Assembly: GCA_964587835.1 (NCBI GenBank)
Contig: CAZPMN010000003.1
Coordinates: 76,565-140,564 of the forward strand
Length of the DNA stretch: 64,000 bases
Direction: 5' to 3'
From: an uncultured bacterium
GTDB lineage: Bacteria > Auribacterota > Erginobacteria > Erginobacterales > Erginobacteraceae
Shown: positions 4,067 to 42,774 of the stretch, in pieces
Numbering within the stretch: position 1 is the first letter of the stretch
Layout: every line of letters starts with the position of its first letter
Notes under the pieces: model-generated
Told to the model about the DNA's origin: nothing
Seen by the model: the letters and a program-made list of their open reading frames with translations, nothing else
The model's database searches: none
Position numbers and translations under genes: made by a program

Positions 4067-4654
4067 TTGCAAAAGGTTATGAACAAGGAAACGATCCTCG
4101 ACCACGCTTTTTACCGTCGCTCCACGGTCCGGGTAGCCCGCGATCTGCTGGGCCAGATCCTGGTCAGGAAGATCAACGGGGAACTTCTCTCCGGCCGGAT
4201 CGTCGAAACCGAGGCCTATACCGGCCCCGGAGACCCGGCCTCTCACGCCGCCCGGGGCGCGACCCCCCGTTCAGCGATCATGTTCGGCCGGCCGGGACGT
4301 GCCTATGTCTACTTTTGTTACGGGATGCACCACCTGCTCAACGTGGTCACGGAGAGGGAGGGGACGGCCGGCGCGGTCCTGATCCGGGCCCTGGAACCGG
4401 GGGAAGGTCTTGCCCGGATGCTGAGGAACCGGGAGAGAAATAAACTCAGGGGACTCCTTGACGGACCGGGCAAGTTAACCCAGGCACTGAAGATCGGGCG
4501 GGAACTCAACGGCTGGGATTTGACCGGGGGAGGAGAACTCTATATCTTGGGGGGAACACCCCGGATCGGGGAAACCGTCATCGCCGGGCCCCGGATCGGG
4601 ATCAGAAGAGGCACGAAAAAACTCTGGCGGTTCCGCCTCCATCTTCCCTCCTGA
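4067..4654 (+). CDS. mpg: DNA-3-methyladenine glycosylase (Mpg/AAG family)
   Basis: [49 protein letters not shown] matches the Mpg family signature. Confidence 0.85.
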
Positions 4655-4673
4655 TTTCAACTCCGGTAACGCC

Positions 4674-5429
4674 TTAATCCCGCGCTCCCTCCAGGATCGG
4701 GATGATCTCGGTCAAACTGGTGACCTGGTAATCCGGAACCTTGATGTGCGCCTCCGGATCGAACCGGGCCTCCTCGACCTCCCTCTCCAGGGTCTCGATC
4801 AATTCCTGTCCGTCCTCCGCCGCCCGCTTCACCAGGAAGGTGGTCATTCCAGCCAGATTGCCCATCATCACGTCGGTCAGGCGATCACCGACCATCGCTG
4901 TTTCTTCCGCCTTCAGATCCAACTGCTCGAGAACGATCTCGGCGATCCGGGGGTTGGGTTTCTCCAGGTGCAGACGCAACGAGTCGTTCCAGTCGAAGAA
5001 ACCCTTCGGCCGGGGAACCCCAGCCTGCTGGGCAAAGGCTTCCATCACCACGTTCTTGGTGGTGAAGGTGGCCACCGCGAACTTGATCCCCTCCCGGTCG
5101 AGATAGTTTAAGATCTCAACCGCGTCGGGAAAGAGCCCGGCTTTCCCGGCCCGGGTATAAGCAATCCGCTCCCGTTCATCCACCACACCCTTTACCCTCT
5201 GGAATTCGTCCCAACTGGTCTTCAGTCCGATCGTCTCCAGTTTCTCGATGAATCCCTTCCCGGTATAGTAGGCGAGCATATACTCGTCTTCCTTTCCCTC
5301 GGGAACCGCGCCGCCGCACTCTTCCACTACCTTGATGAACACATCCCGCCAGTAGATTCTCGGGTTGGGATATACCTTGGCGATCGTGTTGTCGTTATCA
5401 AAAACTATACCCTTGAGCCTGACGGCCAT
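4674..5429 (-). CDS. HAD-superfamily hydrolase
   Basis: Motif I FDNDNT (DxDxT), motif IV VGDRLTDVMMGNLAGM. Confidence 0.75.
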   Translation of the reverse strand: MAVRLKGIVFDNDNTIAKVYPNPRIYWRDVFIKVVEECGGAVPEGKEDEYMLAYYTGKGFIEKLETIGLKTSWDEFQRVKGVVDERERIAYTRAGKAGLFPDAVEILNYLDREGIKFAVATFTTKNVVMEAFAQQAGVPRPKGFFDWNDSLRLHLEKPNPRIAEIVLEQLDLKAEETAMVGDRLTDVMMGNLAGMTTFLVKRAAEDGQELIETLEREVEEARFDPEAHIKVPDYQVTSLTEIIPILEGARD

Positions 5430-5487
5430 AACAACCTCCGGTTGATGATTTCTCCAAGTTTTGCTGTGCTCCCGGCTCGGCCCTGAA

Positions 5488-5514
5488 ACCCGGATACCGA
5501 TTACCGATCACCGA
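5488..5514. repeat. short heptamer tandem array CCGATTA/CCGATCA x3 directly downstream of the giant HEAT gene stop
   Basis: ggataccgattaccgatcaccgattaccg read directly. Same heptamer family as at 59326-59440. Confidence 0.6.
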
Positions 5515-8500
5515 TTACCGTCTGTCGATCTCGCTCCCGGGCGGCAACAGATTGCGCTTGATCTTGCGGATTGCCTCCGCCGCCGTCGCCCGAACGGTTT
5601 CGCTGTCATCTTGCAACAGTCCCCGGAGCGGTTCCTCCGCCTCCGGTTCCCCCAGCTCGCCGAGGGCCGCCGCGGCGACCCGGCGGACGCCGGAGTGACG
5701 CTCCCGGATCGCCTCCAAGAGCTGATCGACCGCCCGCAGGTCGCCGAGCTTGCCCAGGGACGCCGCCGCCCGGAACCGGACGGCAACCTCATCTTCCTTG
5801 AGGGCCAGCAACAACGGTTCCACCACGGTGCTGTCGCCGGATTCTCCCAAGGCCAGGGCGGCTTCGGCCCGGACCCCGACATCCGGATCGGCCAGAAGTT
5901 TGAGCAGAGGCTGGGCCGCCCGGGAGTCTTTCAACTTTCCCAGGGCAGCCGCTACCGCCCGGCGGACCCAGCAGTCCCGGTCTTCAGCAGCGGCGATCAG
6001 GGAATCAAGCCAGGCGGGATCGTTAAGCCGGCCCAGAACCGCGGCGGCGGTCGCCCGGACCCCACTTTCCCGATCTTGCAGACACCCGGCGACTGCCGGG
6101 CCCGCCCGGAGATCATCCAGTCGGCCCAAAATCAGAAGCGCGTTGTTCCGAACTGAGGCGGATTTGTCTTTTAAAGCCGCCATCAATGGTTCCACCGCAT
6201 CCTTTGATTGCAAGTCGCCCAGGGCCATCGTCGCGCTTACCCTGACCGCCTCGGCGGGATCCTTCAGCACCTCGATCAGGGCGGAGAGAGAAGAGGTATC
6301 CCCGATCTTGCCCAGGGCTTCGGCGGCGGAGGAGCGGACGGGAACGGCGGGATCCTGCAGGGCTTCAATCAGGGGGCCGGACGCACGCTGATCCGGAATC
6401 CGGGACAGGGCAAGGGCGGCCGCCTGTTTCACCGCATCGGATTCATCCTTCAGGGACTCGATCAGTGGCTCGATCCCCTGCGGGCTCTTCAGTTGCCCCA
6501 GGGAATCGGCCGCCGCCCGCCTGACCCAGGACTCCTCATCCCGCAAGGCCTCCACCAGGGGAGCGACCACCCGGGCATCCCCGATCCGGCCCAGCGCGAC
6601 CGCGGCCGCCCGTCGCAGTTCCCGGTCCGGATCCTGGAGTTTATCCAGCAGGGGATCCACCGCGCGACCCGATCCGACTTTCTCCAGGGAGGAAACCGCC
6701 GCCAGGCGGACATCAGTCTGATCGTCCTCCAGCATCCCGATCAGGTGATCCAGCGCCCGCTCGCCGCCGATCGCGCCCAGGGCGGAAACCGCCGCCTCCC
6801 GAACCTCGGTCGTCGGATCGGAAAGAACTTCAATCAGGGCCTCGAGGGCCTGTTCGTCGCCGATCGCGCCTAGGGCGGTGCACGCCCGGCACCGGATCTC
6901 CCGATCGGGGTCCTTCAGGACGGCGATCAGGGGTTCGATCGCCCGGGGATCGCGGAGGCGAATCAGCAGCTGAACCGCGATCTTTCTGGTTTCCGGATCC
7001 TCTTCCGACAAAGCCGCCAACAGGGATTCCGCCGCTCCCCGGTTGACTATATCCTCCAGGGCCCGGATCGCGATCTCCCGATCGAGGGCGGCATCTTCCT
7101 GCAGGGAACGCAGCACCTGGGGGACAACGGCGGAGGGCGACATCCGCCCCAGGGCCCGCGCCGCCGTCCGGCGGACCCAGATCTCCGGATCGTGGAGGGC
7201 CCTGACCAGCGGCCGGATCGCCGACTCGTCCCCGATCCGGCCCAGGGCGTCCGCCGCGGCCCGGCGGCCGGAAGGTCCCCCCTTCTCCAATTCTTCAATC
7301 AGAAGGATCACCGCCTTCTCCTCCTCCAAGCGGCCGAGCATAACGGCCGCGGTTCCCCGAACTGCGGAGGAATTGTCCTGAAGTGCTCGGATCAGGTGAC
7401 CGGCCACCGCTTCCCCGCCGAGGCGGCCCAGGGCGTCTACCGCGGCCCGGCGCACCCAGCTCTCGGGATCCTTAAGCGTTTCAACCAGTGGTTCCAGGGC
7501 CCGCCGGTCGCCCAGCATCCCCAACGCGTTAGCCGCCCGGCTCCGCACCCCCCGATTGGGATGGCGAAGAGACTCGAGCAGGGGGGGAACCGCTCTCACA
7601 TCCCCGATCCGACCCAGGGCGTCGATGACCTGCCGCTGGACCGGGGGATCGGGATCTTCCAGCAACTCCAGCAGTTTCGGCACCGCCTCGACCGCCTCCA
7701 TCTTTCCCAGGGTCTGGGCGGCGTTCGCCCGGACGGCGGTGTCCTGATCTTCCAGAGCGGCCAACAGGGTCTCGACCACCTTCCGGTTCTTGAAGGAAGC
7801 CAGCAGCTTGGCGGTCAGCTTGCGCACTTGCTGGTTGGCATCGTTCATAATCTCCATCAGCCGATCGACCATTTCTTCGTCCACCAGTTTCTCCAGAGCG
7901 CGGGCGGCCGCTCGGGCCACCTCCGGGTCGTCATCCCGGAGGGCGGAAATCACCGTCTCGGCGGCCCGGCGATTCCCGCTCTCTCCCAGGGAGTAAACCG
8001 CCGCCGCCCGTACGCCGGTTTCCGGATCGCCGGCGGCCTGGATCAAAGCCGGCACAACCCGGTCTTCCTGCACCCCACTCAGGGCCAGTACCGCCGCCCG
8101 CCGGACGTCCCGGTCCCGGTCCTGCAGGGCCCCGGTCAGTTCATCAACCACCCCCGTTCCTCCAATCCGCCCCAGAGCCCGGGCGGCTTCAACCCGGACC
8201 GGGGGAGCGTCGTAGAGAAGCGCCTCGGCCAACACTCCGATATCGTCGCTTTCGCCCACGGCTCCCAGAGCGGCGGCGGCGGCGACCCGTTCCTCCAGCA
8301 ATCCTTCCCGAAGGGTATCCAGGACTACCGGTCGGGCGGCCGGATCGGCGAACCTCTTGCAGGCCACCAGAATCCGGCGGCGGACAGAACCCGAAGCCGC
8401 CGGCATCAGATCAAGCAAAGGCTCCAGGGCCGAACGATCGCCGATCTCGGCCAGGGCGGATACGGTATTTTCCACCACCACCGGGAGAGGATCTTTCAGG

Positions 8501-10266
8501 GATTCGATCAACAAGGGAACCGCTTCCGCTCCGCCGATCCTTCCCAGAGATCGGGCGGCGGCGGCCCGGACTTCGTTGGCATCGTCTTTCAGGGCGGCGA
8601 GGAGAAGCGCGGTTGACTTCGGATTACCGATTGAACCAAGGGCCTCGGCCGCCGCCGCCCGGACCAGCGAAGACTCGTCGGTCAGGAGTTTCTCGAGCGG
8701 CTCCCGGGCCCTCCCGTCGGAGAGGCGCCCGAGGGCTCCGGCGGCCTTCTGTCTCACTTCTCGTTCCGGATCCCACAGAGCGGCGGCCAGCGGTTCCAGG
8801 GCCTCCGGAGAATCAAGCCGGCCCAGGGCCTCGGCAGCCGCCGACCTCACCTTGCGATCCTCGTCGCGAAGCAGCCGGATCAGGGGTCGAACCCCAGCTT
8901 CGTCTCCGGAACGCCCCAGGGCCCGGGCCGCCTGGGCCCGGATATCACTCTGCTCGTCGTCAAGCGCGGCCAGCAGAGAATTGATCGAACGGCTGGTACT
9001 CACCCTGCCAAGAAGCGAAAGAGCCAGGGCCCGGTCTTCCGGCTGGCCGGTATCGAGAATTTTCTGCAGGGGTTCCACCGCCCGTTCATCGACCAGGTCC
9101 TCGAGGATGCGATGGATGTGTTCTTTAACCGCGGCTTCCTGATCCCGGTGCAATTCGATCAGGGGCCCCACCGCGCGGGTATCTTTCAGGTCGCCGAGGG
9201 CGTCCAGGGCGCTGAGCTTCAATTCGGGATCTTCCTCCCGGAGGATCTGTAACAGGGGCTTGACCGCCCGGGGATCCCCGATCTTGCCCAGCGCGAAGGC
9301 GGCGGCCCGTCGGACGCCGGAATCGTCGTACCGGAGTGCCTGGAGCAGGGTGGGGACTGCAGCCCGCCCCCCGACCCGTTTCAATACCGACGAGGTCAGT
9401 TCCCGGATTCGCTCCGCCTCAATTTCTTCCGGGCTCGGCGCGGCCGCCGGTTTCTCATCCGCCGGTTTAGCCTCCTCAAGGTTAAAATCTTCCTCCGGGG
9501 CCTCTTCCGCAATCGTAATTTCTTCCAGAACTTCCGGGGCGGCTTCAATCTTCTGCGCTTCCCCGGCCAGCAGGGTGGAGATCAGGGGATCCACTGCTTC
9601 ATCGGCTCCGATCTCTCCCAGGGCCAGGGCAGCGCTGATCCGGACCTGCGGTTCCTTGTCCTTGAGAGTTCCCACCAGCGGCCGGACCGCCTTCTCCGCG
9701 TGGAGTGCGCCCAGGGCGGAGGCGGCGGCGGCGCGAACGGAGGAGGAGGTATCCTGAAGGGCTTCAACCAGGGGGGGAGTCGCGCGGGAAGAACCTATCC
9801 GGCCCAGGGCCAGGGCCGCGCTGGATCTGACCTCTTCTTTTTCCTCCCCGCCCAGCAAAGCGATCAGCGGCTCAACGGCTTCCTCGCCGCCGACCGCACC
9901 CAAGGCCAGCGTCACGGCCGACCGGACCCGGAGATCCTCATCGGCAACGGCCTGCCGGAGCGCGGGAAACGCCTCCTGGTCTCCGATGACTTCCAGGGCG
10001 GCGGCGGACGCCCGGCGAACTTCCGGCTCCTTATCCCGCAACAGGGCGGTTACCGGACCTACCGCCCGGTGATCACCTATCTCCCCCAGGGCGCGGACGG
10101 CCGCCGCCCGAACGTCGGTTTCCCCGGCGGAGAGCAGTTCGAGAAGCGGGGCCACGGCCCGAGGGTTACCGATCTCACCCAGGGTCTCCGCCGAGAGAAC
10201 CCGGATTTCGGGAGAGGGATTACCCAGGGCGGCGATCAGGGTTTCAATGTCATCTTTCAGGCTCAT
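5515..10266 (-). CDS. giant HEAT-repeat protein (PBS-lyase/E-Z type HEAT-like repeats, ~50 tandem ~31-aa units), 1583 aa
   Basis: Uninterrupted ORF. Nearly every ~31 aa repeats VRxxAAxALGxIGDxRAVxPLIxxLxDxDxxVR. One acidic low-complexity linker (EAAPEVLEEITIAEEAPEEDFNLEEAKPADEKPAAAPSPEEIEAER). No signal peptide, no other domain. Confidence 0.85.
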   Translation of the reverse strand: MSLKDDIETLIAALGNPSPEIRVLSAETLGEIGNPRAVAPLLELLSAGETDVRAAAVRALGEIGDHRAVGPVTALLRDKEPEVRRASAAALEVIGDQEAFPALRQAVADEDLRVRSAVTLALGAVGGEEAVEPLIALLGGEEKEEVRSSAALALGRIGSSRATPPLVEALQDTSSSVRAAAASALGALHAEKAVRPLVGTLKDKEPQVRISAALALGEIGADEAVDPLISTLLAGEAQKIEAAPEVLEEITIAEEAPEEDFNLEEAKPADEKPAAAPSPEEIEAERIRELTSSVLKRVGGRAAVPTLLQALRYDDSGVRRAAAFALGKIGDPRAVKPLLQILREEDPELKLSALDALGDLKDTRAVGPLIELHRDQEAAVKEHIHRILEDLVDERAVEPLQKILDTGQPEDRALALSLLGRVSTSRSINSLLAALDDEQSDIRAQAARALGRSGDEAGVRPLIRLLRDEDRKVRSAAAEALGRLDSPEALEPLAAALWDPEREVRQKAAGALGRLSDGRAREPLEKLLTDESSLVRAAAAEALGSIGNPKSTALLLAALKDDANEVRAAAARSLGRIGGAEAVPLLIESLKDPLPVVVENTVSALAEIGDRSALEPLLDLMPAASGSVRRRILVACKRFADPAARPVVLDTLREGLLEERVAAAAALGAVGESDDIGVLAEALLYDAPPVRVEAARALGRIGGTGVVDELTGALQDRDRDVRRAAVLALSGVQEDRVVPALIQAAGDPETGVRAAAVYSLGESGNRRAAETVISALRDDDPEVARAAARALEKLVDEEMVDRLMEIMNDANQQVRKLTAKLLASFKNRKVVETLLAALEDQDTAVRANAAQTLGKMEAVEAVPKLLELLEDPDPPVQRQVIDALGRIGDVRAVPPLLESLRHPNRGVRSRAANALGMLGDRRALEPLVETLKDPESWVRRAAVDALGRLGGEAVAGHLIRALQDNSSAVRGTAAVMLGRLEEEKAVILLIEELEKGGPSGRRAAADALGRIGDESAIRPLVRALHDPEIWVRRTAARALGRMSPSAVVPQVLRSLQEDAALDREIAIRALEDIVNRGAAESLLAALSEEDPETRKIAVQLLIRLRDPRAIEPLIAVLKDPDREIRCRACTALGAIGDEQALEALIEVLSDPTTEVREAAVSALGAIGGERALDHLIGMLEDDQTDVRLAAVSSLEKVGSGRAVDPLLDKLQDPDRELRRAAAVALGRIGDARVVAPLVEALRDEESWVRRAAADSLGQLKSPQGIEPLIESLKDESDAVKQAAALALSRIPDQRASGPLIEALQDPAVPVRSSAAEALGKIGDTSSLSALIEVLKDPAEAVRVSATMALGDLQSKDAVEPLMAALKDKSASVRNNALLILGRLDDLRAGPAVAGCLQDRESGVRATAAAVLGRLNDPAWLDSLIAAAEDRDCWVRRAVAAALGKLKDSRAAQPLLKLLADPDVGVRAEAALALGESGDSTVVEPLLLALKEDEVAVRFRAAASLGKLGDLRAVDQLLEAIRERHSGVRRVAAAALGELGEPEAEEPLRGLLQDDSETVRATAAEAIRKIKRNLLPPGSEIDRR

Positions 10267-10485
10267 CCGGAATTGATTGTGCCCGTCGCGGTTCGGGAGG
10301 CGAACGATAACAAACCCATCATAACATCGCGGGCCTTTCGGGGGAACAGAAAATAACCGCCGGATAAGTCACTCCGGGAATAAAAACATTGTTGAATTCC
10401 GTCCGGGCCAATATATTCATAAGAGATCGCACAACCTAAAGGGGGACTGCCCCGCTGATGCGCCGGTACAGCTAGCAGACCGGCA

Positions 10486-11304
10486 GTGACGCTGATGCCT
10501 ATCTCATTCATCTACTGGACAACTTCCCCGGAACTGTGCCAGATCGGTCCGGTTACTATCCGCTGGTACGGCCTCCTCTTCGCCCTCGGTTTTTTCCTCG
10601 GCTACCTCCTCATCCAGAAAATCTTTCGCCGGGAGGGCGTCCCCGAGAACGACCTGGGGACATTGCTCCTTTACGTACTCGCCGGCGCCCTGATCGGGGC
10701 CCGGTTGGGCCATTGCCTTCTCTATGAACCCGCCTATTACCTCAAGCATCCGGAAGAGATCATCCTGGTCTGGCGGGGCGGACTGGCCAGCCACGGCGGC
10801 GCGGCGGGAATATTGATCGCCCTCTTCTTCTATACCCGCCACCGTCCGGCCCAATCATACCTCTGGCTGTTGGACCGGCTGGCGATCGCCGTGGCCCTGA
10901 GCGGGACTTTGATCCGGATCGGGAATCTCTTCAACTCCGAGATCATCGGAACCGCCAGCGACCTTCCCTGGGCCTTTGTCTTCCCTCGTTCCGGAATCTC
11001 TCCGACGGTACCCCGCCACCCGGCCATGCTCTACGAAGCCGCCGCCTACCTTCTGATCTTCTTCCTCCTTTTGATTATCTACCGCCGCCAGGGCCGCCGG
11101 GTCCCTCCCGGGGAACTGATCGGACTCTTCCTGCTCACCGCCTTCACTGCCCGGTTCTTCATTGAATATGTTAAGGTTCCCCAGGCGTCCTACCGGCTCC
11201 CCTTTCCCTTGCGCGTCGGCCAGCTGCTGAGCCTCCCCGCCGTCGCCGCCGGGTTCATCCTTCTGGCGAACAGCCGAAGACGATCGCTGATAAAACGGAA
11301 GTAG
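10486..11304 (+). CDS. lgt: prolipoprotein diacylglyceryl transferase
   Basis: IRWYGLLFALGF, GGLASHGGAAG, PRHPAMLYEAAAY. Collinear with E. coli Lgt motifs. Confidence 0.9.
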   Translation: MTLMPISFIYWTTSPELCQIGPVTIRWYGLLFALGFFLGYLLIQKIFRREGVPENDLGTLLLYVLAGALIGARLGHCLLYEPAYYLKHPEEIILVWRGGLASHGGAAGILIALFFYTRHRPAQSYLWLLDRLAIAVALSGTLIRIGNLFNSEIIGTASDLPWAFVFPRSGISPTVPRHPAMLYEAAAYLLIFFLLLIIYRRQGRRVPPGELIGLFLLTAFTARFFIEYVKVPQASYRLPFPLRVGQLLSLPAVAAGFILLANSRRRSLIKRK

Positions 11305-11305
11305 G

Positions 11306-12100
11306 ATGATGGAAGCCTCAGCTCCCTTCGGAGATGTCGGTATCCGGACCGGAAGGGGTGATTACCGGTCGCCTCCGCGAACACCGGGCTGGCTGGCCCG
11401 GCGTTTCCCGACCGCGGTCTTTTATCTGAAGTTGCTTTGGATTGTCGGTGCGGCCGGCCGGACGGCTCAGCGGCGTGATTACCACGGCCAGGATTGGATC
11501 CGGGACAGTCAGAGGACCCTCAAGGCGCTGGAATCGGTCGGGGTCCGGATTACGGTCGAGGGGACTGACAGCTTCATCCGACTGGAAGCGCCCGCCGTCT
11601 TCGCGGCTAATCATATGAGTATCCTGGAGACTTTTGTTCTCCCCTCGATAATCCGTCCCCACCGGAGGGTCACCTTCGTAACCAAGAAGGAGCTTCTCGA
11701 TTACCCGTTCTTCGGCCCGGTTTTGGCCAGCCGCCGCCCGATCGTCGTCTCCCGGCGGGATCCCCGCCGGGATCTCCAGACCGTCCTGGAGAAAGGCGCT
11801 GATCGCCTCCGGAAGGGAATCTCGGTCATCGTCTTTCCCCAGAATACCCGAATGGCGGTTTTTGACCCCGACCGGTTCAACTCGCTGGGGGTGAAACTGG
11901 CCCGGCGGGCCGGGGCACCCTTGATTCCGATCGCCCTCCAAACGAATGCCTGGGGAACCGGGAAGTGGCTCAAGGACTTTGGCAGAATCTCGCCCGCCAT
12001 ACCGGTCCGGATAGTCTTCGGAACTCCAATCATGGTCCGGGGCGGGGGGCGGGAGGCCCAGTCCGGGCTGATCGACTTTATCTCCCGGCGGCTGGGGTGA
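11306..12100 (+). CDS. lysophospholipid (1-acyl-glycerol-3-phosphate) acyltransferase family protein, PlsC-like
   Basis: Acyltransferase motif region AANHMSILETF (HX4-type block), FVTKKEL, PIVVSRRD, VIVFPQNTR. Immediately follows lgt with a 1-nt gap. Confidence 0.7.
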   Translation: MMEASAPFGDVGIRTGRGDYRSPPRTPGWLARRFPTAVFYLKLLWIVGAAGRTAQRRDYHGQDWIRDSQRTLKALESVGVRITVEGTDSFIRLEAPAVFAANHMSILETFVLPSIIRPHRRVTFVTKKELLDYPFFGPVLASRRPIVVSRRDPRRDLQTVLEKGADRLRKGISVIVFPQNTRMAVFDPDRFNSLGVKLARRAGAPLIPIALQTNAWGTGKWLKDFGRISPAIPVRIVFGTPIMVRGGGREAQSGLIDFISRRLG

Positions 12101-12109: not shown

Positions 12110-12409
12110 TCACAACCAGGAAAACCAGCCCAGATCAAAGATCTCCGACACCGTACCCAGGGCGAGCACGGTGACGTAAGCAATCAAGAGGACCATTCCG
12201 ACGGCCGGACCGTGTTTCTTGAAAAAAGGAAATTCCGAGCGGAAGAGGCAGTAAGCCAAGCCGACAATCCAGAGCAAGAGCGAGATCACCAGCAGACACT
12301 TCTGGGCCAGACTGTACGGTGGGAAGATCCGGGAGAGTCCCCAGAGTCCGCCGAAAATCAGAACCAACAGGATCAAGAAGATCTCCCCGTGGCGGCGTAG
12401 ATAGGTCAT
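12110..12409 (-). CDS. small integral membrane protein (3 predicted TM), hypothetical
   Basis: 99 aa, three hydrophobic segments. Confidence 0.45.
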   Translation of the reverse strand: MTYLRRHGEIFLILLVLIFGGLWGLSRIFPPYSLAQKCLLVISLLLWIVGLAYCLFRSEFPFFKKHGPAVGMVLLIAYVTVLALGTVSEIFDLGWFSWL

Positions 12410-12423
12410 CGTAGCCTCCCTAG

Positions 12424-13455
12424 TTATTTCCTGAGCCGGACTGTTACTTCGACCGTGGCGTCCACCCGGAGGTCGATATTCCGGCCCGGGAGGAACTTTT
12501 CCAGACCAATCCGAATATCCAGTTTCTGTTCCAGTCGCGAAGTGCTGGAAATCACCCGGCCCGCCGGCAGGTCAAAACGGGTCGTCCCGCTCAGCTGGTG
12601 GGAAGATGCAAGCAGGCCGGCCCTCCCCTCTCGCTCTTCGTCCGAAATTTCCTGCCGGAAACTTCCGGTGGTATCGAGCAGGGCTATCTCCCGTTGCGGC
12701 CCGGAGCGATCGCGCAGGGTGGTCTCAAGTTGGATCGACCATTCTTCGCCCTGGTCCCAGTCCCGGTCGATCCCCGGCCCCGGGATTTCCAGGGTCCTCG
12801 ACCAGGATGTCCCGAGCGGGACAGGCTGGAGGGGAAACTCGGGCTGCATCCGTTCCAGGAATGAATCAAATTGGAGCGACGGGAAGAGACGCTCAGGGGC
12901 TTCGGGAACCCGGGCCATCAGAATCGTTCCCCGGCTGTTGACCTGAAATTCAAATTCTTCCCCGACCACCCCCCGGAGGGGGAAATCGTCATCTTCCCCG
13001 GCTACCTCCCTGGTGACTCGGCCTGCTTCCGAGACGAGAAGTTTCCGGTCGGTCAGGTGCACGGATATTTCCCGATTATGAACGGCACTGACCGTGGTCA
13101 GGTCAAAATCCCGGTAGCTGAGTAACAGTTTGGCCTCTCCGTCCGGAAAAACCTGGTCGACCCGGAATCGCATCAGATAGCTTCCCTCCAACCGGACCGG
13201 GAGGCCGATCCGGTCTTCCTCGGCGTCTTCCCGGCCGTAAGTCATCGTCACCTCCCCCTCTCCCCGCAGGGCAACCTCATAGGTAATTTCCTCGCCCGGC
13301 CGGAATTTGTAACGCAAAAGAACGGTTTCCGGCGGCGGGCGGCGGCACCCGGCGGGAAGGCAGATCAGGATGAGCATCCCCAGGCGAAGAATTCCGGACA
13401 GGCGCGGACCAGCCCGCCGAGCGGGTCTCAAGCCGGAATCAAAACGGGAGGTCAC
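12424..13455 (-). CDS. putative lipoprotein, hypothetical
   Basis: N-terminus LGMLILICLPAGC resembles a signal peptide with lipobox cysteine. No recognisable catalytic motifs. Confidence 0.55.
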   Translation of the reverse strand: MTSRFDSGLRPARRAGPRLSGILRLGMLILICLPAGCRRPPPETVLLRYKFRPGEEITYEVALRGEGEVTMTYGREDAEEDRIGLPVRLEGSYLMRFRVDQVFPDGEAKLLLSYRDFDLTTVSAVHNREISVHLTDRKLLVSEAGRVTREVAGEDDDFPLRGVVGEEFEFQVNSRGTILMARVPEAPERLFPSLQFDSFLERMQPEFPLQPVPLGTSWSRTLEIPGPGIDRDWDQGEEWSIQLETTLRDRSGPQREIALLDTTGSFRQEISDEEREGRAGLLASSHQLSGTTRFDLPAGRVISSTSRLEQKLDIRIGLEKFLPGRNIDLRVDATVEVTVRLRK

Positions 13456-13494
13456 GGTTTTCTCTCCTTGCTTCGGGGAAGTTTGGGACGGCGC

Positions 13495-14232
13495 CTAACG
13501 TCGGGGGATACCCTGTGATCTCTCCAGCAATTCGCTGACAATCGGCGCCATCTCCTCCTGGCCGGCCAGCAGGCGGAGAGCGGCGATGACGATCTCCTTG
13601 TAGAACCAATCCAGACTCGCATCATTGACCATACTGACCAGAGCCTCGGCTGATTCCCGGACCGGGGTATGCGCCAAGTCCCAGATCGCTGCCTGCCGGA
13701 TCTGGTCGGATTGGCCGGTATCATTGAAGATCCCGACCAGCGGAGCCACGACCCGAGCGTCTTCGATATATCCCAGCAGCTGCATCGCCGTCATCCGGTC
13801 CTCTTCCCGGCCCGACCGGACCTGGCTCAGGAGGTACCCCTGGTACCGGTTGTAATTGTGATCAAATCGGCAGAGCGCCTGCGCGGCTCGCATCTTCACC
13901 GGGATGGATTCGGAATTCTGCCATATCTTTTCCACCGCGGCCGCCGCCGGACGATAACGGATCAGAGCCAGAATCTCAATCAGGCCGTCGGCCAGCTGAT
14001 CATCGGCCCCCTCCAGGGCCTTCACCAGCGCGGGGCCGGCCGCTTCCCCCCTCCCGACCAGATCCGCCCGGGCCCGCAGCCGGACCGCCTCATCGGAGTC
14101 AGCCAAGCGATCGACGAGGGTGGAAATCTCCGCGGGTTTTTCCCCGGCCGCCTCCTCCTCCTGGCCCGGACAGGTCCCGGAGGCGGCGAGGACGATAAAC
14201 ACCAGAAAAACTACCAAGAAAAGATTTTTCAT
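13495..14232 (-). CDS. secreted HEAT-repeat protein
   Basis: ORF 13495..14292. Likely start at MKNLFLVVFLVFIVLAASG (signal peptide). Body contains DxxVRLRARADLVGRGEAAGPALVKAL and AQALCRFD HEAT-like units. Confidence 0.6.
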   Translation of the reverse strand: MKNLFLVVFLVFIVLAASGTCPGQEEEAAGEKPAEISTLVDRLADSDEAVRLRARADLVGRGEAAGPALVKALEGADDQLADGLIEILALIRYRPAAAAVEKIWQNSESIPVKMRAAQALCRFDHNYNRYQGYLLSQVRSGREEDRMTAMQLLGYIEDARVVAPLVGIFNDTGQSDQIRQAAIWDLAHTPVRESAEALVSMVNDASLDWFYKEIVIAALRLLAGQEEMAPIVSELLERSQGIPRR

Positions 14233-23532: not shown

Positions 23533-23740
23533 TATCCATACGCCCCTTGCACGCGATAGGTTGGGAAGAGAATAAGTTGAGTCTGTTTATTTCCCGATTT
23601 TTGTCAACGGAGAATTCCGAGATGAAAGGACAAAATGCCCCAACGGCCCCTGAATCCGGTCCATCCCTAAGATCCCCTTGAAAAATATAGTTGCTTTTAC
23701 CCCTATTCCCCGCTACCTTACTGACTCTTCAAAACAATCT

Positions 23741-23814
23741 GGGGGCGTAGCTCAACTGGTTAGAGTACCGGACTGTCGATCCGGGTGTTGCGGGTTCGAG
23801 TCCCGTCGTCCCCG
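23741..23814 (+). tRNA. tRNA-Asp (anticodon GTC)
   Basis: Manually folded cloverleaf: acceptor GGGGGCG/CGTCCCC, anticodon arm CCGGA-CTGTCGA-TCCGG giving GTC, T-loop GGTTCGAGTCC, discriminator G. CCA not encoded. Confidence 0.9.
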
Positions 23815-23816
23815 TG

Positions 23817-23850: not shown

Positions 23851-24065
23851 CTATTGGAATCGAAGTATTCCAACACCCGCAACAAGTTGTTTCTTCCCTC
23901 TTTCGTGGTAAAGTTAATTTTCAGTCCGTTCCAATCTCCGCGGTTTCCCTTTTCCCAATCATTTCACCCTGCAGAAGGTGAAAATCTATATTCACCGGTG
24001 TCTGAATATTATTGCAAAAAGGTTATGAATATCGTAACCTTCCTGCAAATTCTATGGTGCAAGCT

Positions 24066-24719
24066 ATGCAAACATTAACCGAGAAAGTTTACCGGCTGGC
24101 TCCTCCGGGCGGAATTTTTGCTGAATCCGTGGTGCGAAATCTCTTGCCGTCGGCCTCGGATACAGCCCGGAAACAGTTCATCTACCGGGCGGTGAGCAAC
24201 GGAGAGATCCTGAGACTCAAGCCCGGACTTTACTGCCTGGCGGAAGCATATCGAAAAACCCATCCCCACCCGTTTGTTGTGGCCGGCTTGCTTCATTCTC
24301 CCTCCCACATCAGCCTGGAATCAGCGCTCTCGTATTATGGACTGATCCCGGAGGCGGTCCACGGCGTAACCAGTGTGACCGACCGCCGAGGCCGGACGTT
24401 CCGGACGCCGCTGGGAGATTTCAGTTTTACAAGAGTCCCCGCCGACGAACCCCGTGCCGGAGTCCGGCATATCAATATCGATAACCAGGGATGGATCTTC
24501 ATCGCCGGGCCGATGAGGGCTATTGCCGATTTGATCTATCTGCGAAAAGGGGTCTTCTGGAAAAAAGACGGCTTAAGATTTCTAACGGAATCCCTGCGCA
24601 TTGAAAAAGACGATCTTCATAAGATCCCGCTGGATGATTACGAAGAAGTCTTCAGCAGCCTGAGAAACAAAAGAACTAAAACATATCTCAAAGGTCTGAG
24701 ATCGGAGTTGGAGCGATGA
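24066..24719 (+). CDS. type IV toxin-antitoxin AbiEi-family antitoxin (wHTH transcriptional regulator)
   Basis: ORF 24012..24719. Probable start at MQTLTEKVYRL. 4-nt overlap (ATGA) with downstream AbiEii gene, the typical AbiE arrangement. Confidence 0.7.
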   Translation: MQTLTEKVYRLAPPGGIFAESVVRNLLPSASDTARKQFIYRAVSNGEILRLKPGLYCLAEAYRKTHPHPFVVAGLLHSPSHISLESALSYYGLIPEAVHGVTSVTDRRGRTFRTPLGDFSFTRVPADEPRAGVRHINIDNQGWIFIAGPMRAIADLIYLRKGVFWKKDGLRFLTESLRIEKDDLHKIPLDDYEEVFSSLRNKRTKTYLKGLRSELER

Positions 24720-25582
24720 TTGGAGAGATTATCAGCGAAAGAGTGCGGGATTATGCTCCAGTCGACGCCCTGGAGCAGGAGAATATTCTGGTCGAACTGC
24801 TTCAGCGCTACGTATTGGCCGCGCTTTCCCGGACCCGCTTTTTTTCCCAGGCCGGTTTTCACGGCGGGACCTGCCTTCATATCTGTTACGGGATAAGACG
24901 TTTCTCGGAAGATCTTGATTTCCTGCTGAAAGAACCCGATCCAAGTTTTGCTTGGGGGCCGTATATTGAGAAGGTTATCGCGGACAACCGGGATGAAGGG
25001 ATCCGTTTCGAACCTCAGGACAAATCGAAATCGGGAACGGCGGTGAAAAAGTATTTTTTGAAAACCGGACTCAGCGGGGAAGAGATGCGGGGATTAAAAC
25101 TTCCTTTTCCTCGCCACCCGGGCCAAAAGATCCGGATCAAGCTGGAAGCGGATGCCGATCCCCCCGGCGGGTCGGGCTTCGAGACGCGATACATCGATTT
25201 CCCAATGACGGCGGCAATCACAACTCAAACTCTTGCCTCGGGGTTCGCGACCAAATCACACGCCTTGCTTTGCCGGGAGTATGTCAAGGGTAGGGACTGG
25301 TATGACTTTCTCTGGTACGTCACGAAAAAAATTGTCCCCGATTCGGCGCTTCTCGCTAATGCCCTTAAACAGCAGGGGCCGTGGGCCGGTCAATCCATCC
25401 GGATGACCCGCGCGTGGTATCTTGAAACGATGAGGCAGAGGATCAAAGAAATCGACTGGGGCAAAGCCAGAGAGGACGTCAATCGTTTTATCCCCGCCCG
25501 GGAGCGGGAGAGCCTTAATGCGTGGGGCCCGGACTTATTCCTGCAGTCCCTCGATCGAATGGCAGAGATTATGGGGGATTAA
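24716..25582 (+). CDS. AbiEii/AbiGii-family nucleotidyltransferase toxin
   Basis: GGTCLHICYGIRRFSEDLDF (AbiEii NTase signature with the conserved RFSEDLDF block). Confidence 0.8.
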   Translation: MIGEIISERVRDYAPVDALEQENILVELLQRYVLAALSRTRFFSQAGFHGGTCLHICYGIRRFSEDLDFLLKEPDPSFAWGPYIEKVIADNRDEGIRFEPQDKSKSGTAVKKYFLKTGLSGEEMRGLKLPFPRHPGQKIRIKLEADADPPGGSGFETRYIDFPMTAAITTQTLASGFATKSHALLCREYVKGRDWYDFLWYVTKKIVPDSALLANALKQQGPWAGQSIRMTRAWYLETMRQRIKEIDWGKAREDVNRFIPARERESLNAWGPDLFLQSLDRMAEIMGD

Positions 25583-29984: not shown

Positions 29985-32900
29985 TTAACCGCGAGCGAGG
30001 TCGGCCAGTTCGGCATCGATCCGGACTACCCTGCCCTTTCGGATATCACGGGCGGCGCTGCCCCTGACCTCGCCGCCGGCGACGGCGACTTTCCGACCGT
30101 TGCCGTAGGTGAGCCGGTAGTTGACCACGCCTGTCCCCGACTGCCGGGAGACCGGACCCTGGCCCCCGCGGTGATAGACGACCAGGATCCGGCCGAGCAG
30201 GAGAAAGGCGAAAGAACCGGCCGGCAGCCTTAGTTTTTTCCGCCGGCCGGATCGATCCAGGTACCCGGTTTCACGCCCTGAACGGGTGAATAGCCATTCG
30301 GGAAGTGCGGGATCAAGACGGAAAGCGAGACGGGCGTCGCCTCCCAGGTAGAAGGGCCGGGGACCGGCGGTCATCAGGGTCCAGATGTGGATCATCTCCC
30401 CGGTGACCCCGCTCAGCCGGGGCTGGAGACCGCGGCCGTGCAGCGTCGGGTCCGGAAAGGCGGAGGAGACGATGAAGGAGACGTTCTCCAGGGGACTGCG
30501 GCCGTAAACCTCCGGGGAGAGGAAGGGAGGAAGCGCCGTCTTCAGGTCGGCGAAGAACTCCCGGTGGAGACCGGCGCGGAGCAGCTCGAGCAGGTACTTG
30601 AACTCCATATGGGTGTAGATCGATTCGTTCTCGATCCAGCCCGGGCCCCAGGCCTTGACCCTCCCGATCTCGAACGGCGCCTCCTCGAGGGACTCGCAGA
30701 CCTTGTACATCTTCAGCTTCCCGTCGAAGAGCCCGGAATCCCGGACCGCCCGGTAGATGGTTTCGCCTCCTTCCGGATGCACCCGGAGGTAGTGAACCGG
30801 CCCCTCGAGGAAGAGGGGGAGCGGTTCCTGACGGAAGGAGAGCGGCTCGACCAGGGGGAGTCCGTCGGGGTTGCGCAGGATTTGGCCATCGCTCCCCCGG
30901 CAGCGGCGAAAGCGGGTGACCCGGTTGACCAGGTAGGTGTAGGGAATTCCGGCCGGGTTGAAGACCCGGCGGCGATTCTCCGGACGGTAGATGAGTCGGA
31001 CCACCTTCAGCCCCGATTCGAGGAAGCAGGCCAGTTCATCCCGGGTCAGGGTCTTCTCCCCTCCCCCGATGCCATAGGCGGTGGCGGCGCGGTACTTCTC
31101 CTTCAGGGTGTTGCTCAGGTCCCAGTAGCGGCGGGGGCCGATCTTGCCGGCCCCCCGGCGGGCGGCCAGCCGGGTCAGGCTGGCGATAAAATCGGCCAGC
31201 TCGGAATAAACCCGGACCGGCCGCTCGAGGCCGGCGAGACAAGAAAGGAGGAATTCCAGGGCCCGCTCCAGCTCGAAGGTCTGGCAGAGCGAGGAGCCAT
31301 TGATCCCGGGCAATCCGTTCATCGAGTCGTTCCAGCCGGGCTTGTCGGCCTCCATCTCGATCCCGAACCCCTCCGGATCAAGGGTGGCCAAACGGTTAGC
31401 GACCAGGCAGAGCAGCTTGGTCAGGAGGCAGGTGTAGTAGACCTCCCCCCGGCCGCGCCGGGCCCGCATCCGGAGGGGGGAGCTTTCCCGGGCGGCGATC
31501 ATCGCCGATTTCTTCCCGTCGCGGACCACGGCGCCGTAGCGCCTCACACCCTCGTCGGTGAGAACGTACTTCTCCGAGCGGGGCACGACCAGGTCGGGGT
31601 TGTCGTAAAAATAATACCGCCGGTTCCCCACCAGCAGCTCCTCGGCCCGATCGGGGAAGACGGAAAGGAAGGCGTCAAGGAGGTCAAGGTTGTAGAGCCA
31701 GTGGTCGACCCAGTAGCCTTCGTGGACCCCGGCGGAGTCCTCCTCGACGCAGAAGCCGAGCAGCTTGTTCAGCAGCCGGCCGGGGTTATTCGACCCCCGG
31801 ATTTTCAGTTTTTCGGCCGCCATCGCGAACTCTCCCGGAGAGAAGGAGCCGGCGAGCAGCTCGCCCAGCCGGCGGGATTTCTCCTTCCCGGCGATAGTTT
31901 TCAGCCAGCGGCGGCAGCCCGCCCGGTTCTCGACCCGATAAACGACCTGGTTGACCTCCAGGGGGTTGTAACCGTCGGTCTGGATCAGGTTGAGGAAGAG
32001 CCGGATGTTCTCGTCCTCGGTCTCGGGGAAGAACCTCACGTCGCAGCGCCGGTTCTGGTTGACGGAGCGGTAGTGCCCGGTCCCCTGGGAGTAGTAGGTG
32101 GGGTCGAGGACGAAAAAATGGTAATCGCGCTCCAGGTCGCCGTTCTGGCGGGAGTAGAGGTAGAAGGCCGATTTCCCCTCGGCGGCGTTAAAGACGGTCG
32201 GCATCCCTCCCCGGATCACGTTGTCGAGAAAGGTCTGCCGGCAGTAGTTATCGAAGTCGGGCTCGCCGGAGGCGGTGAAGCACAGATCCTCGATCCCCCG
32301 GACCAACTCCGCGTTCTCCTTGCGCTTGGCGGCCAGGTAGCGGGGACCGAGACGCCGGATCAACCCCGGTATCTCTTCCTCGTCTTCCTGGCCGATCACG
32401 GAGTAAATCCGGAAGGTCTCTCCCGGTTTAAGGCGGAACGGCGCGGCAGCGAAGGCGCAGGGCGTTTTGTTCTGCCGGGCCTGGCTCTGCTGGAATACCT
32501 CGCCCGGGGCTAGCCGGGCCAGGCGCCAGGGCTGGTCGTAGATCTCGCTGTCGGCGAAGATTACCGCCGGATCGACGATGTAGGAGGTCCGGCGGGGGTC
32601 GGGCCGGTCGGAGGCAAAGGCGGCGTAGAAGTTGCCCCGGCGGATTTGCTCGATTTGCTCTACGTCGGCCGGGCTCTGCTTGAGCCGGAAGAGCGGCACC
32701 CCAAAGCAATCGAAGACCCCGATCATCCCCTCGATATGGCGGGCGGTGGTCTTAAGGATCTCCAGGTCGCAGCCGAAGGGAAGGATCCGGGCCGCCCCGT
32801 CGACCACCTCTCCCTCCAGGGTCCGCTGGGAGATATTGCGCAGGGAGAGGACCCGGACCAGGGCGGGAAAGCTCTCCCCGGGTAGGGTGTAGTAATCCAC

Positions 32901-33275
32901 CCCGGTCACCAGTCCCCTCCGGGGAGAGGACTCGCCCAGGGTCAGTTCGGCCGGGGACACCGTCAGAATCTGCCTGATCCCCCGCTCCCGGCTCTTCCGG
33001 AAAGGCTCGTATATTCGGCCCTTCCCGATCCGGATAAAGGTCCGGAACCCCTGATGACCCACCACCTGGAGGGCCCGGTTGAAGGAGAGGAATTCCAGGA
33101 TCTGGTTGTCCTTGTCCCCCACCCCCGCCGAGCAAAGGCACTGACCCCGGCTGACGTAGTAAGCCCAGAGGGGGATGCCGGTCTCCCCGGCGATCCCGGG
33201 GAGAAAGTTGGAAAAGGAAGGCTGCCAGTTGTAATCTTCGACGAGAAACAAACCTTCCGGGGTGGTCTGGTACAT
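29985..33275 (-). CDS. large (1096 aa) conserved hypothetical protein, possibly a six-hairpin (alpha/alpha)6 glycoside hydrolase/phosphorylase-like enzyme
   Basis: Uninterrupted ORF. Start chosen at MYQTTPEGLF, 7 nt after GGAGG. Blocks such as KPGWNDSMNGLPG and GYWVDHWLYNLDLL are reminiscent of GH15/65/94-type barrels, but assignment is tentative. Confidence 0.55.
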   Translation of the reverse strand: MYQTTPEGLFLVEDYNWQPSFSNFLPGIAGETGIPLWAYYVSRGQCLCSAGVGDKDNQILEFLSFNRALQVVGHQGFRTFIRIGKGRIYEPFRKSRERGIRQILTVSPAELTLGESSPRRGLVTGVDYYTLPGESFPALVRVLSLRNISQRTLEGEVVDGAARILPFGCDLEILKTTARHIEGMIGVFDCFGVPLFRLKQSPADVEQIEQIRRGNFYAAFASDRPDPRRTSYIVDPAVIFADSEIYDQPWRLARLAPGEVFQQSQARQNKTPCAFAAAPFRLKPGETFRIYSVIGQEDEEEIPGLIRRLGPRYLAAKRKENAELVRGIEDLCFTASGEPDFDNYCRQTFLDNVIRGGMPTVFNAAEGKSAFYLYSRQNGDLERDYHFFVLDPTYYSQGTGHYRSVNQNRRCDVRFFPETEDENIRLFLNLIQTDGYNPLEVNQVVYRVENRAGCRRWLKTIAGKEKSRRLGELLAGSFSPGEFAMAAEKLKIRGSNNPGRLLNKLLGFCVEEDSAGVHEGYWVDHWLYNLDLLDAFLSVFPDRAEELLVGNRRYYFYDNPDLVVPRSEKYVLTDEGVRRYGAVVRDGKKSAMIAARESSPLRMRARRGRGEVYYTCLLTKLLCLVANRLATLDPEGFGIEMEADKPGWNDSMNGLPGINGSSLCQTFELERALEFLLSCLAGLERPVRVYSELADFIASLTRLAARRGAGKIGPRRYWDLSNTLKEKYRAATAYGIGGGEKTLTRDELACFLESGLKVVRLIYRPENRRRVFNPAGIPYTYLVNRVTRFRRCRGSDGQILRNPDGLPLVEPLSFRQEPLPLFLEGPVHYLRVHPEGGETIYRAVRDSGLFDGKLKMYKVCESLEEAPFEIGRVKAWGPGWIENESIYTHMEFKYLLELLRAGLHREFFADLKTALPPFLSPEVYGRSPLENVSFIVSSAFPDPTLHGRGLQPRLSGVTGEMIHIWTLMTAGPRPFYLGGDARLAFRLDPALPEWLFTRSGRETGYLDRSGRRKKLRLPAGSFAFLLLGRILVVYHRGGQGPVSRQSGTGVVNYRLTYGNGRKVAVAGGEVRGSAARDIRKGRVVRIDAELADLARG

Positions 33276-33437
33276 CAGAGGACCTCCGTGAGCTCGATTT
33301 CCGGGAAGTTCCACCATAACAGCGCCGGACCCGGCCGGTCAAGGACAAGGACCGGCCGGGCCCGGGCAAACTTTATCTTGCCTCCCGAACCGGGCCGGAT
33401 TATCTTTTTCCGGAGCCAACCTCGCCCCGGAGACAGG

Positions 33438-35149: not shown

Positions 35150-35647
35150 TCAGGGCAATTCGACGATATTGCTCAGCACTACCGGATCGGCGTAGGGGTT
35201 GTCGGAGGCTTCCACCAGGTAGAGGGTCCAGCCGGAGGGAACGGCCAGAGAGAGGGTGAATTCCCCGGTCTGGGCGCTGAAAAGCCCCAAGTTGTTCTGA
35301 TCGACCAGGATCCGGTTGTCGGTGGTCAGCCGGGTATGGACGGCGATCCGAACGTCCCCCCGGTAGGGTTGGAGCAGGCGGTAGGAGAAGGAGAGGTTAT
35401 CCGGCTTCTCACCGCTGACGGCGATCAGATAAACGTCTCCCCCCTCCGGCTGAAAATCCAATTCCGGCAGGACCGAATTCCAGAAGCAGCTTACCGTCTG
35501 GCCGGATGCCGGAGACTCCGGCACCGCCGCGGGGGTCGAGACGGGGGACAGGGCTGGCGGCGGGGAGACCACCTCTCCGACCGCCGGAAGACCCGGAAGC
35601 AACAAAAGCAGCAGAGCCAATCGCCACGTCGTTTTCAGCATATCCAT
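35150..35647 (-). CDS. secreted hypothetical protein
   Basis: Signal peptide LALLLLLLPGLPAVG. No known motifs. Confidence 0.45.
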   Translation of the reverse strand: MDMLKTTWRLALLLLLLPGLPAVGEVVSPPPALSPVSTPAAVPESPASGQTVSCFWNSVLPELDFQPEGGDVYLIAVSGEKPDNLSFSYRLLQPYRGDVRIAVHTRLTTDNRILVDQNNLGLFSAQTGEFTLSLAVPSGWTLYLVEASDNPYADPVVLSNIVELP

Positions 35648-35671
35648 ATCCTTCCCGCCCCCGGTGAATTC

Positions 35672-36658: not shown

Positions 36659-36660
36659 AC

Positions 36661-36840
36661 CACTAATTACACTAATTAACTTGCATTATCCCCCCACCTC
36701 GCCCCCTTTGAAGTCCACTAATTACACGAATTATCACTAATTTTATTTAGAATCCCCCACCTCACCCCCTTTCAGTCCACAGATTACACTGATTACTCAG
36801 ATCAGTTCCCCCTGCCCACTGCCTACTCCCCACTGCCCAA
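36661..36840. repeat. repeat-rich intergenic region between gmd and rmd. ~40-bp direct repeat x2 (ATCCCCCACCTCGCCCCCTTTGAAGTCCACTAATTACAC), plus CACTAATTACAC and CACTGCC sub-repeats.
   Basis: Read directly at 36688-36727 and 36747-36785. Confidence 0.7.
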
Positions 36841-41216: not shown

Positions 41217-41221
41217 CGTAT

Positions 41222-42712: not shown

Positions 42713-42774
42713 AATTAGCCACGAAGATGACGGCCGGCCACCGCCCGCCGGTTATCTTGGAAAAAGGCCCGGGT

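Follow-up and report, generated by a model that had tools for sequence, protein, structure and literature searches.

The question raised by this locus is what a bacterium could use a protein for that consists almost entirely of HEAT repeats. The gene lies in a stretch of 64,000 nucleotides (nt), referred to below as the window, from contig CAZPMN010000003.1 of assembly GCA_964587835.1, and it encodes a protein of 1583 amino acids (aa). On balance, we lean towards the reading that this giant HEAT protein is a lineage-specific, vertically inherited, cytoplasmic, non-enzymatic protein-binding scaffold of Candidatus Auribacterota. Beyond the architecture, what is said about function in the following sections is what we infer.

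Architecture of the giant HEAT protein

The gene is an open reading frame (ORF) with an ATG start, and its product has a mass of 167 kDa and a pI of 4.9. Pfam assigns HEAT_2 (953 bits in 24 stretches) and HEAT_PBS (576 bits in 23 stretches) to the protein, and finds no other domain in it beyond HEAT/ARM-type families. Translation and profile matches thus confirm the initial annotation, made from the sequence alone, in which the 1583-aa frame was described as built of tandem PBS-lyase-type HEAT repeats. The figure of about 50 repeats given there is also a fair one: a profile hidden Markov model (HMM) constructed from the protein's own units detects 48 units with a period of 31 aa, seven of them in residues 17-232 and about 41 in residues 294-1565, and the count of about 48 hairpins is the same when AlphaFold2 models are included. 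The repeat consensus, xxVRxxAAxALGxIGDxxAVxPLxxxLxD, is of the PBS/alphaRep type. The gene and its parts are as follows.

5515..10266, minus strand: the whole giant HEAT-repeat gene, with HEAT_2 and HEAT_PBS matches.
9562..10266, minus strand: N-terminal solenoid (residues 1-235), a cap helix and seven HEAT hairpins (units 1-7 of the protein's own HMM).
9433..9561, minus strand: disordered acidic linker rich in Pro, Glu and Ala (residues 236-278).
5569..9432, minus strand: C-terminal solenoid (residues 279-1566), a long cap helix and about 41 unbroken HEAT hairpins (units 8-48 of the same HMM).
7786..7866, minus strand: irregular but strongly conserved segment DRLMEIMNDxNxxVRKL..LL.SFKN (residues 801-827), with invariant alignment columns.
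7189..7560, minus strand: conserved patch on repeats 27-30 (residues 903-1026), with NRGVRSRAA..., ESWVRRAAVDALGR..., SAVRGTAAVMLGR and GRRAADALGR.
5515..5568, minus strand: C-terminal tail with an RKIK...LPPG motif, and the stop codon; R1567, K1568, I1569 and P1575 are invariant in a five-sequence alignment.

AlphaFold2 was applied to residues 1-420 and to residues 294-1493, in the latter case with an alignment of 37 distant HEAT proteins. The first model consists of the cap helix and the seven hairpins, with a predicted local distance difference test score (pLDDT) of 97-98, followed by disorder at residues 236-273 (pLDDT <50) and by a 32-residue helix (residues 279-310) that opens the second solenoid. 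The second model, with a mean pLDDT of 92.4, contains a cap helix and then 38 uninterrupted helix hairpins. Units that are irregular in sequence, around residues 375-437, 593-685, 807-841 and 1058-1100, are also modelled as hairpins, and the same is true of the segment at residues 801-827 despite its irregular sequence. Both models are all-helical and contain no strands. With tandem units of about 31 residues in the profiles and stacked hairpins in a continuous alpha-solenoid in the models, the protein belongs to the PBS-lyase-type HEAT repeat proteins. It does not have the architecture of the membrane-coat-like proteins of the Planctomycetes-Verrucomicrobia-Chlamydiae (PVC) group, in which an N-terminal beta-propeller is followed by an alpha-solenoid (PMC2799638), because the models are without strands. 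Nor is it a STAND/NACHT-HEAT or caspase/CHAT-HEAT protein, since only the disordered linker and short termini lie outside the arrays.

Ala, Leu, Arg and Glu are abundant in the protein, which carries a net charge of -63. The single acidic linker noticed initially is real (net charge -14 over residues 233-293), and the reported absence of enzymatic, transmembrane and secretion features is borne out by Pfam and by hydropathy: there is no transmembrane segment (the maximum Kyte-Doolittle value of a 19-residue window is 1.36) and no signal peptide. At the DNA level, Tandem Repeats Finder detects no 93-nt array in the gene, and the copies of the repeat are only 60-75% identical, in agreement with the earlier description of the DNA as non-repetitive.

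Two candidates were rejected at this stage. A DNA-binding role like that of the AlkD HEAT-like glycosylases, prompted by the nearby gene for the glycosylase Mpg, does not fit the negative net charge, and the Mpg gene is convergent rather than co-oriented. An 82-aa ORF at 10263-10511 of the minus strand is not accepted as a gene: it has no family match, lies in the divergent promoter region, and overlaps both the start codon of the HEAT gene and the start of the adjacent lgt gene.

Orthologues, evolutionary pattern and distant relatives

Orthologues were located by walking from homologues of Lgt, the product of the adjacent gene, and by one metagenome scan with an alignment of orthologues. This yielded seven further orthologous loci, six with an intact gene of 1577-1585 aa and one with an in-frame stop. 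The phylogenetic spread given here is a lower bound.

L004, Candidatus Erginobacter occultus GCA_030765265.1: 5057-9808, 1583 aa.
L005 and L006, two Logan runs with mutually identical sequences: 4952-9697 in L005, 1581 aa.
L009, GCA_964465735.1: 5045-9790, 1581 aa.
L007, an ENA metagenome: 4253-8986, 1577 aa.
L019, a second ENA assembly: 1585 aa.
L012, identical to L013, from the metagenome scan with the orthologue alignment: 1584 aa.
L020, JGI metagenome 3300017992: 4353-9101, minus strand, a frame of 1582 codons with a single in-frame TGA at codon 1282 (..GVR*GAATALS..), which may stem from a sequencing error or a polymorphism, or mark a very young pseudogene.

The six intact orthologues are 70, 68, 65, 70, 55 and 50% identical to the window protein, and all orthologues share the start motif MSLKxDIE. 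Their alignments contain only 0-6 gap columns, which comprise two linker residues and a few residues at the extreme C-terminus. The linker itself is poorly conserved in sequence, but its length is constant within 2 aa. The Lgt encoded beside the giant HEAT gene is 78% identical to that of Candidatus Erginobacter occultus (Candidatus Auribacterota, PVC group), and Lgt identity across the same genomes is 66-83%.

The units within the window protein have a mean mutual identity of 43% (maximum 64%), whereas units at the same position in different orthologues are 59-72% identical. Since each unit is closer to its orthologous unit than to its neighbours, the units of the array were distinct from one another by the time of the common ancestor, and none has been added or lost since then. 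As read from the aligned sequences, this shows that repeat number and register were fixed before the sampled Auribacterota clades separated and have not changed since. Pairwise dN/dS values of the orthologous genes are 0.26-0.38, which is purifying, though not stringent, selection. The initial description of the array as old and maintained rather than recently expanded is consistent with all of these results: the lengths of the orthologues, the near absence of gaps, the dN/dS values and the difference between same-position and within-protein identity.

To see where the conservation lies, we divided the positions of the unit into repeat core (V4, R5, A8, A9, A11, L12, G13, L24, L28 and D30) and variable positions. 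Over six orthologues, 57% of the cells are invariant in the repeat core, as against 28% at the variable positions of helix A and 18% at those of helix B. Conservation is thus concentrated on the hydrophobic and structural positions of the repeat, so that selection acts on how the rod or superhelix is shaped and how long it is. The helix-A variable positions (2, 3, 6, 7, 10 and 14 of the unit) have the same spacing as positions 18, 19, 22, 23, 26 and 30 of alphaRep, which form its concave target-binding face (PMC3754942).

Repeats 27-30 depart from this pattern. There, 13 of the 22 helix-A variable positions show no change across seven orthologues, compared with an invariant background of 22.5% (binomial p = 2e-4 uncorrected, about 0.01 when corrected for about 45 windows). 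The patch is Arg-rich and includes an invariant Trp (in ESWVRRAAVDALGR), and by analogy with alphaRep we regard it as a candidate partner-binding site on the concave face. Neither His nor Cys occurs in any of the 512 columns that are invariant in seven orthologues, and the whole protein has only 10 His, which argues against a metal centre or a thiol catalyst.

Sequence databases give a very different picture of the family. The window protein itself is on record nowhere by exact look-up. A scan of the contig library with it gives only an unrelated Schlesneria match of 29% identity, and word-indexed and exhaustive protein searches give only repeat-level relatives of at most 48% identity. However, none of five orthologous proteins (L004, L005, L007, L009 and the window; 1577-1583 aa) is present in the 15-billion-protein collection or in the representative library, and in the contig index the orthologous HEAT genes are without a Pfam record while their neighbours on the same contigs are present. 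The lack of close homologues in these searches thus reflects the two protein libraries, from which the entire family is missing. In the literature on Auribacterota and on bacterial HEAT_PBS giants, we found no description of the protein.

Giant HEAT proteins as a class, on the other hand, are common. An exhaustive HMMER search with residues 1-1200 against 1.84 billion representatives of 50%-identity clusters returns 134,818, 54,035 and 9,272 matches at thresholds of E<=1e-3, 1e-10 and 1e-30, respectively, and the lengths of the best 150 range from 788 to 7989 aa. The 120 best matches listed by the word-indexed search are 943-2751 aa long, and their named sources include Planctomycetota, Chloroflexota, Armatimonadota, Omnitrophota, Candidatus Uabimicrobium, Beggiatoa and Asgard archaea, among others. 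About two thirds of these 120 contain HEAT-type Pfam families only, and the rest add NACHT/nSTAND, SIR2, CHAT, TIR, caspase or similar domains. Alpha-solenoids, including HEAT_PBS proteins in non-phototrophs, have been reported to be enriched in Planctomycetes (PMC3837014). Thus, the part of the initial interpretation that describes an all-HEAT, non-enzymatic-looking, cytoplasmic and old solenoid stands, but the accompanying view that giant all-HEAT scaffolds are unusual in bacteria is not supported, given 9,272 cluster representatives at the strictest threshold. What is new here is the orthologous family; the class to which it belongs, that of PBS/alphaRep-type HEAT arrays, is known and has very many members. 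The protein is neither a new fold nor a new domain, and nothing in it points to a new mechanism.

HEAT giants of about 1500-1800 aa, including one of exactly 1583 aa (P0067), were considered as distant collinear orthologues and rejected, because none of the fourteen tested gave a main-diagonal signal; they are relatives at the repeat level only. A second family of giant HEAT-only proteins (P0040, P0045, P0069 and P0098) has members of exactly 1233 aa that are 58-87% identical to each other with zero gap columns, and a frozen repeat number may therefore be a general property of giant HEAT arrays. Among the matches listed, the most similar HEAT-only giant from another lineage is the 1502-aa protein P0009 (L021, 8001-12509). 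It is flanked by an AAA_15/ABC fragment on one side and by HEPN_AbiV, SWIM and HTH genes, a context that resembles a defence island.

Gene neighbourhood and possible roles

The following genes lie near the giant HEAT gene in the window.

4067..4654, plus strand: Mpg, methylpurine-DNA glycosylase (Pfam Pur_DNA_glyco, 221 bits), convergent with the following gene and conserved in position.
4674..5429, minus strand: phosphatase of the haloacid dehalogenase (HAD) superfamily (Pfam Hydrolase, HAD_2 and Hydrolase_like), directly downstream of the HEAT gene after a gap of 85 nt.
10486-11304, plus strand: lgt (Pfam LGT), divergent from the HEAT gene.
11306-12100, plus strand: PlsC-type acyltransferase (Pfam Acyltransferase), present together with lgt in all orthologous loci.
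13495..14232, minus strand: small secreted HEAT protein of 245 aa (HEAT_2, 42.8 bits) with a hydrophobic, signal-peptide-like N-terminus, MKNLFLVVFLVFIVLAASG.

All loci with flanks share one block, namely Mpg (+), HAD (-), HEAT (-), optionally an OsmC gene, and Lgt with the PlsC-type acyltransferase (+); the OsmC gene, where present (L007, L019 and L020), separates HEAT from lgt. The neighbours singled out initially for comparison in relatives (HAD, Mpg and lgt) are therefore conserved. The outer flanks change between clades while the block stays the same: in the clade of the window they consist of RlmD-like, SurE, GT2 and Dtd genes, and in L019 and L020 of cation ATPase, acetyltransferase, LysM-YkuD, PssA, Psd and MlaD genes. 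The block is thus more than frozen global synteny, although all loci come from one phylum. A general association of giant HEAT genes with HAD or Lgt was rejected, since P0009, the one other family checked, has an unrelated context.

In every orthologous locus that reaches that far, HAD and HEAT are adjacent genes on one strand, separated by 66-222 nt, and in the window the 85-nt gap contains no terminator-like site on the minus strand. HAD is therefore a probable co-transcription partner of the giant HEAT gene. Its own subfamily is less clear: Pfam PGP_phosphatase gives 28.7 bits with no single stretch passing, and all matches to NCBIfam equivalogs or named subfamilies (TIGR02253, YqeG and others) are below their cut-offs.

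The second, secreted HEAT protein pointed out initially does exist, with a HEAT family match and a signal-like N-terminus, but a functional link with the giant protein does not follow, because its gene is adjacent only in close relatives (L005, L006 and L009, but not L007, L019 or L020). It is part of a minus-strand trio at 12110-14232 that also encodes a 99-aa membrane protein and a 343-aa lipoprotein-like protein with an LPAGC motif; the latter has no family match. The trio is kept together in L005, L006 and L009 and is absent beside lgt in L007, L019 and L020, and it is not part of the conserved block.

The scaffold reading that we favour can be put in terms of a mechanism. Two rigid alphaRep-type HEAT arrays, of seven and about 41 hairpins, are tethered by the disordered acidic linker of about 40 residues. 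The variable helix-A positions would offer partners a concave docking surface, as they do in alphaRep binders and CpcE/F, and the best candidate docking site would be the Arg/Trp-rich patch on repeats 27-30 (residues 903-1026). More tentatively, on the basis of the conserved adjacency, co-expression with the HAD phosphatase 85 nt downstream may mean that the scaffold holds or positions this enzyme or its substrates. Such a pairing would be formally analogous to the PR65 HEAT scaffold that carries the catalytic subunit of PP2A.

Several points weigh against this reading. A dN/dS near 0.3 means that the gene is under rather relaxed constraint. Once multiple windows are corrected for, the conserved patch reaches only moderate significance, and its assignment to the concave face comes from homology to alphaRep rather than from model coordinates. 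The predicted TM score (pTM) of the model of residues 294-1493 is only 0.54, so that the overall curvature and global shape of the C-terminal solenoid are not trustworthy. Judging from sequence comparison within a single phylum of limited spread (in terms of the Lgt identities given above), the adjacency of HAD may reflect inherited gene order and not function, and the HEAT-HAD gaps leave room for a separate promoter.

A rather different role, which we consider unlikely but worth keeping in mind, is that of a self-assembling architectural element, such as a ruler, a cytoskeletal rod or a coat-like lattice, with a part in the biogenesis of the envelope, of lipids or of lipoproteins; the function would then lie in the fixed length, and no particular client would be needed. 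This would suit a length, including that of the linker, that stays constant (within 4 aa for the whole protein at 50% identity) and a selection that acts mainly on structural positions. The gene neighbours are also suggestive, with lgt and the PlsC-type acyltransferase in all loci and PssA, Psd and MlaD nearby in the distant clade. The donor substrate of Lgt is phosphatidylglycerol, and the HAD protein has the PGP_phosphatase score and the sub-threshold match to the YqeG family mentioned above. However, the lipid theme rests on these weak HAD subfamily matches, and the protein is strongly acidic and has no membrane-binding segment, no amphipathic region and no beta-propeller. Besides, the 1233-aa family is also free of gaps at 58% identity, so that a fixed length may be typical of such arrays.

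The scaffold and the lipid theme can be combined into a more specific proposal, which we regard as a long shot. In it, the fixed-length Auribacterota scaffold and the downstream HAD protein would form a holoenzyme-like complex that organises lipoprotein and phospholipid biogenesis at the inner face of the membrane, and HAD would possibly be a phosphatase of the phosphatidylglycerophosphate type that feeds Lgt. If true, the complex would be a bacterial, PBS-type-HEAT counterpart of the eukaryotic assemblies of HEAT scaffold and phosphatase.

Another role to be considered is that of a sensor or accessory protein in an anti-phage conflict system. Precedents would be the HEAT/ARM proteins that accompany type XIII retrons and those HEAT arrays to which NACHT/STAND, SIR2, CHAT, TIR or caspase modules are fused. 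PADLOC does report HEAT-ARM_XIII with 442 bits, about one third of the 120 best listed giant HEAT matches carry NACHT, nSTAND, SIR2, CHAT, TIR or caspase domains, and P0009 adjoins HEPN_AbiV, SWIM and AAA_15 genes. The PADLOC match, however, is spread over 14 repeat-level stretches. Type XIII retrons are defined by a reverse transcriptase, an msr-msd non-coding RNA (ncRNA) and a SWIM/DEDE protein (PMC7736814), while within about 10 kb of the giant HEAT gene there is no reverse transcriptase, SWIM/DEDE protein, NTPase or effector, and a search of the 64-kb window with Rfam finds only four tRNAs and no retron ncRNA. Moreover, in 8/8 loci the gene occurs as a single syntenic copy, inherited vertically in the company of housekeeping genes, and it lacks the presence/absence pattern or repeat variation typical of defence genes. 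A role in conflict is accordingly improbable in our view.

Still less credible is an enzymatic or chaperone function of the kind known from named HEAT_PBS families, that is, a bilin lyase of the CpcE/CpcF type, an NblB protein or a metalloenzyme like deoxyhypusine hydroxylase. At first sight, NCBIfam supports such a name, because the whole-protein scores exceed the curated cut-offs for CpcE (508 vs 330), NblB (477 vs 300) and CpcF (289 vs 220), and that for TIGR02270 is also exceeded, by summed repeat-level matches. The PDB sequence search lists CpcE (5n3u), deoxyhypusine hydroxylase (4d4z) and MTH187 (1te4) after alphaRep. However, the CpcE, CpcF and NblB scores are sums over 13-23 partial stretches, the best of which for CpcE covers only profile positions 49-122 of 260, and none of the three profiles gives a collinear full-length match in the protein. 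The His-Glu metal motifs of deoxyhypusine hydroxylase are absent, as expected from the lack of His (and Cys) among the invariant columns. Auribacterota are inferred to be anaerobic fermenters (PMC9324843), which also speaks against a bilin lyase. Note that because repeat scores add up past the NCBIfam cut-offs, automated pipelines might label the protein a phycobilin lyase by mistake.

An assembly artefact, with several shorter HEAT genes collapsed or joined into a chimera, which the initial annotation had named as the outcome that would overturn it, is practically excluded: the Logan short-read assembly of the source sample, SRR8186049, does split the gene over two contigs that meet at 9328-9345 of the window (an 18-nt overlap), but each piece matches its side of the window with 100% identity, the DNA copies of the repeat are only 60-75% alike, and the gene has the same length and is collinear in six intact orthologues from other samples and assemblers (NCBI metagenome-assembled genomes, ENA, JGI and Logan).

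Several other regions of the window also attracted our attention. At 24012-25582 (+), next to a tRNA-Asp gene (23740-23815), there is a gene for a nucleotidyltransferase toxin of the AbiEii type. A 235-aa ORF that overlaps and precedes it has no family match, and the two probably form a type IV toxin-antitoxin pair beside the tRNA gene. A 1110-aa protein at 29985-33317 (-) and a 447-aa protein at 35336-36679 (+) have no Pfam match at E<=1e-5. Tandem pairs of paralogues are found at 39723-45788 (-), namely two GH77 4-alpha-glucanotransferases and two HtrA-like PDZ proteins, the first of which has no match to the trypsin domain.

Comparison with known HEAT systems

Giant HEAT-only proteins are among the largest classes of uncharacterised large proteins in uncultured bacteria and archaea. 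Within this class, the family described here is a clean case: it is single-copy and syntenic, its repeat number is frozen, and it has a localised conserved patch. Repeats 27-30 and the HAD neighbour are thus a concrete target for interaction prediction or pull-downs. The other members of the class, of about 0.8-8 thousand aa, have the same repeat type and often, as here, no other domain. Their settings can differ, as P0009 lies in a defence-like neighbourhood, whereas the Auribacterota family lies in a conserved housekeeping block.

The closest solved structures by sequence are artificial alphaRep proteins (E down to 1e-95, 39-47% identity), and local superposition on their crystal structures gives a template modelling (TM) score of 0.91 with a root mean square deviation of 2.2-2.5 A. 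Proteins of the alphaRep/PBS type, such as MTH187, share the 31-residue unit and the consensus with the giant HEAT protein. However, alphaRep proteins are man-made and have 1-7 internal repeats, and MTH187 has 131 aa, whereas the giant protein is natural and has about 48 units in two blocks with a disordered linker. Unlike in alphaRep, every unit is individually conserved across species.

Two of the systems discussed above resemble the protein only in part. CpcE/CpcF and NblB have the same HEAT_PBS repeat type, but they are proteins of 200-280 aa that act on phycobiliproteins, while the host here is presumably a non-phototrophic anaerobe. The HEAT/ARM accessory proteins of type XIII retrons match in profile at the level of repeats, but the retron partners are absent near the giant HEAT gene.

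The eukaryotic HEAT scaffolds (PP2A PR65/A, CAND1, karyopherins, mTOR and huntingtin) are likewise long unbroken alpha-solenoids, which wrap or carry partners. They top the global fold list, yet they come from a different repeat family: the eukaryotic HEAT giants CAND1, mTOR, karyopherins, SF3B1 and huntingtin are generic fold matches, with TM scores of 0.15-0.33 and 11-16% identity. In this group, PR65 offers a parallel to the gene arrangement in the window, since it carries a phosphatase and the giant HEAT gene has a phosphatase gene directly downstream. The parallel is one of gene adjacency only, and the HAD phosphatase is unrelated to the PPP phosphatases of the PR65 system.

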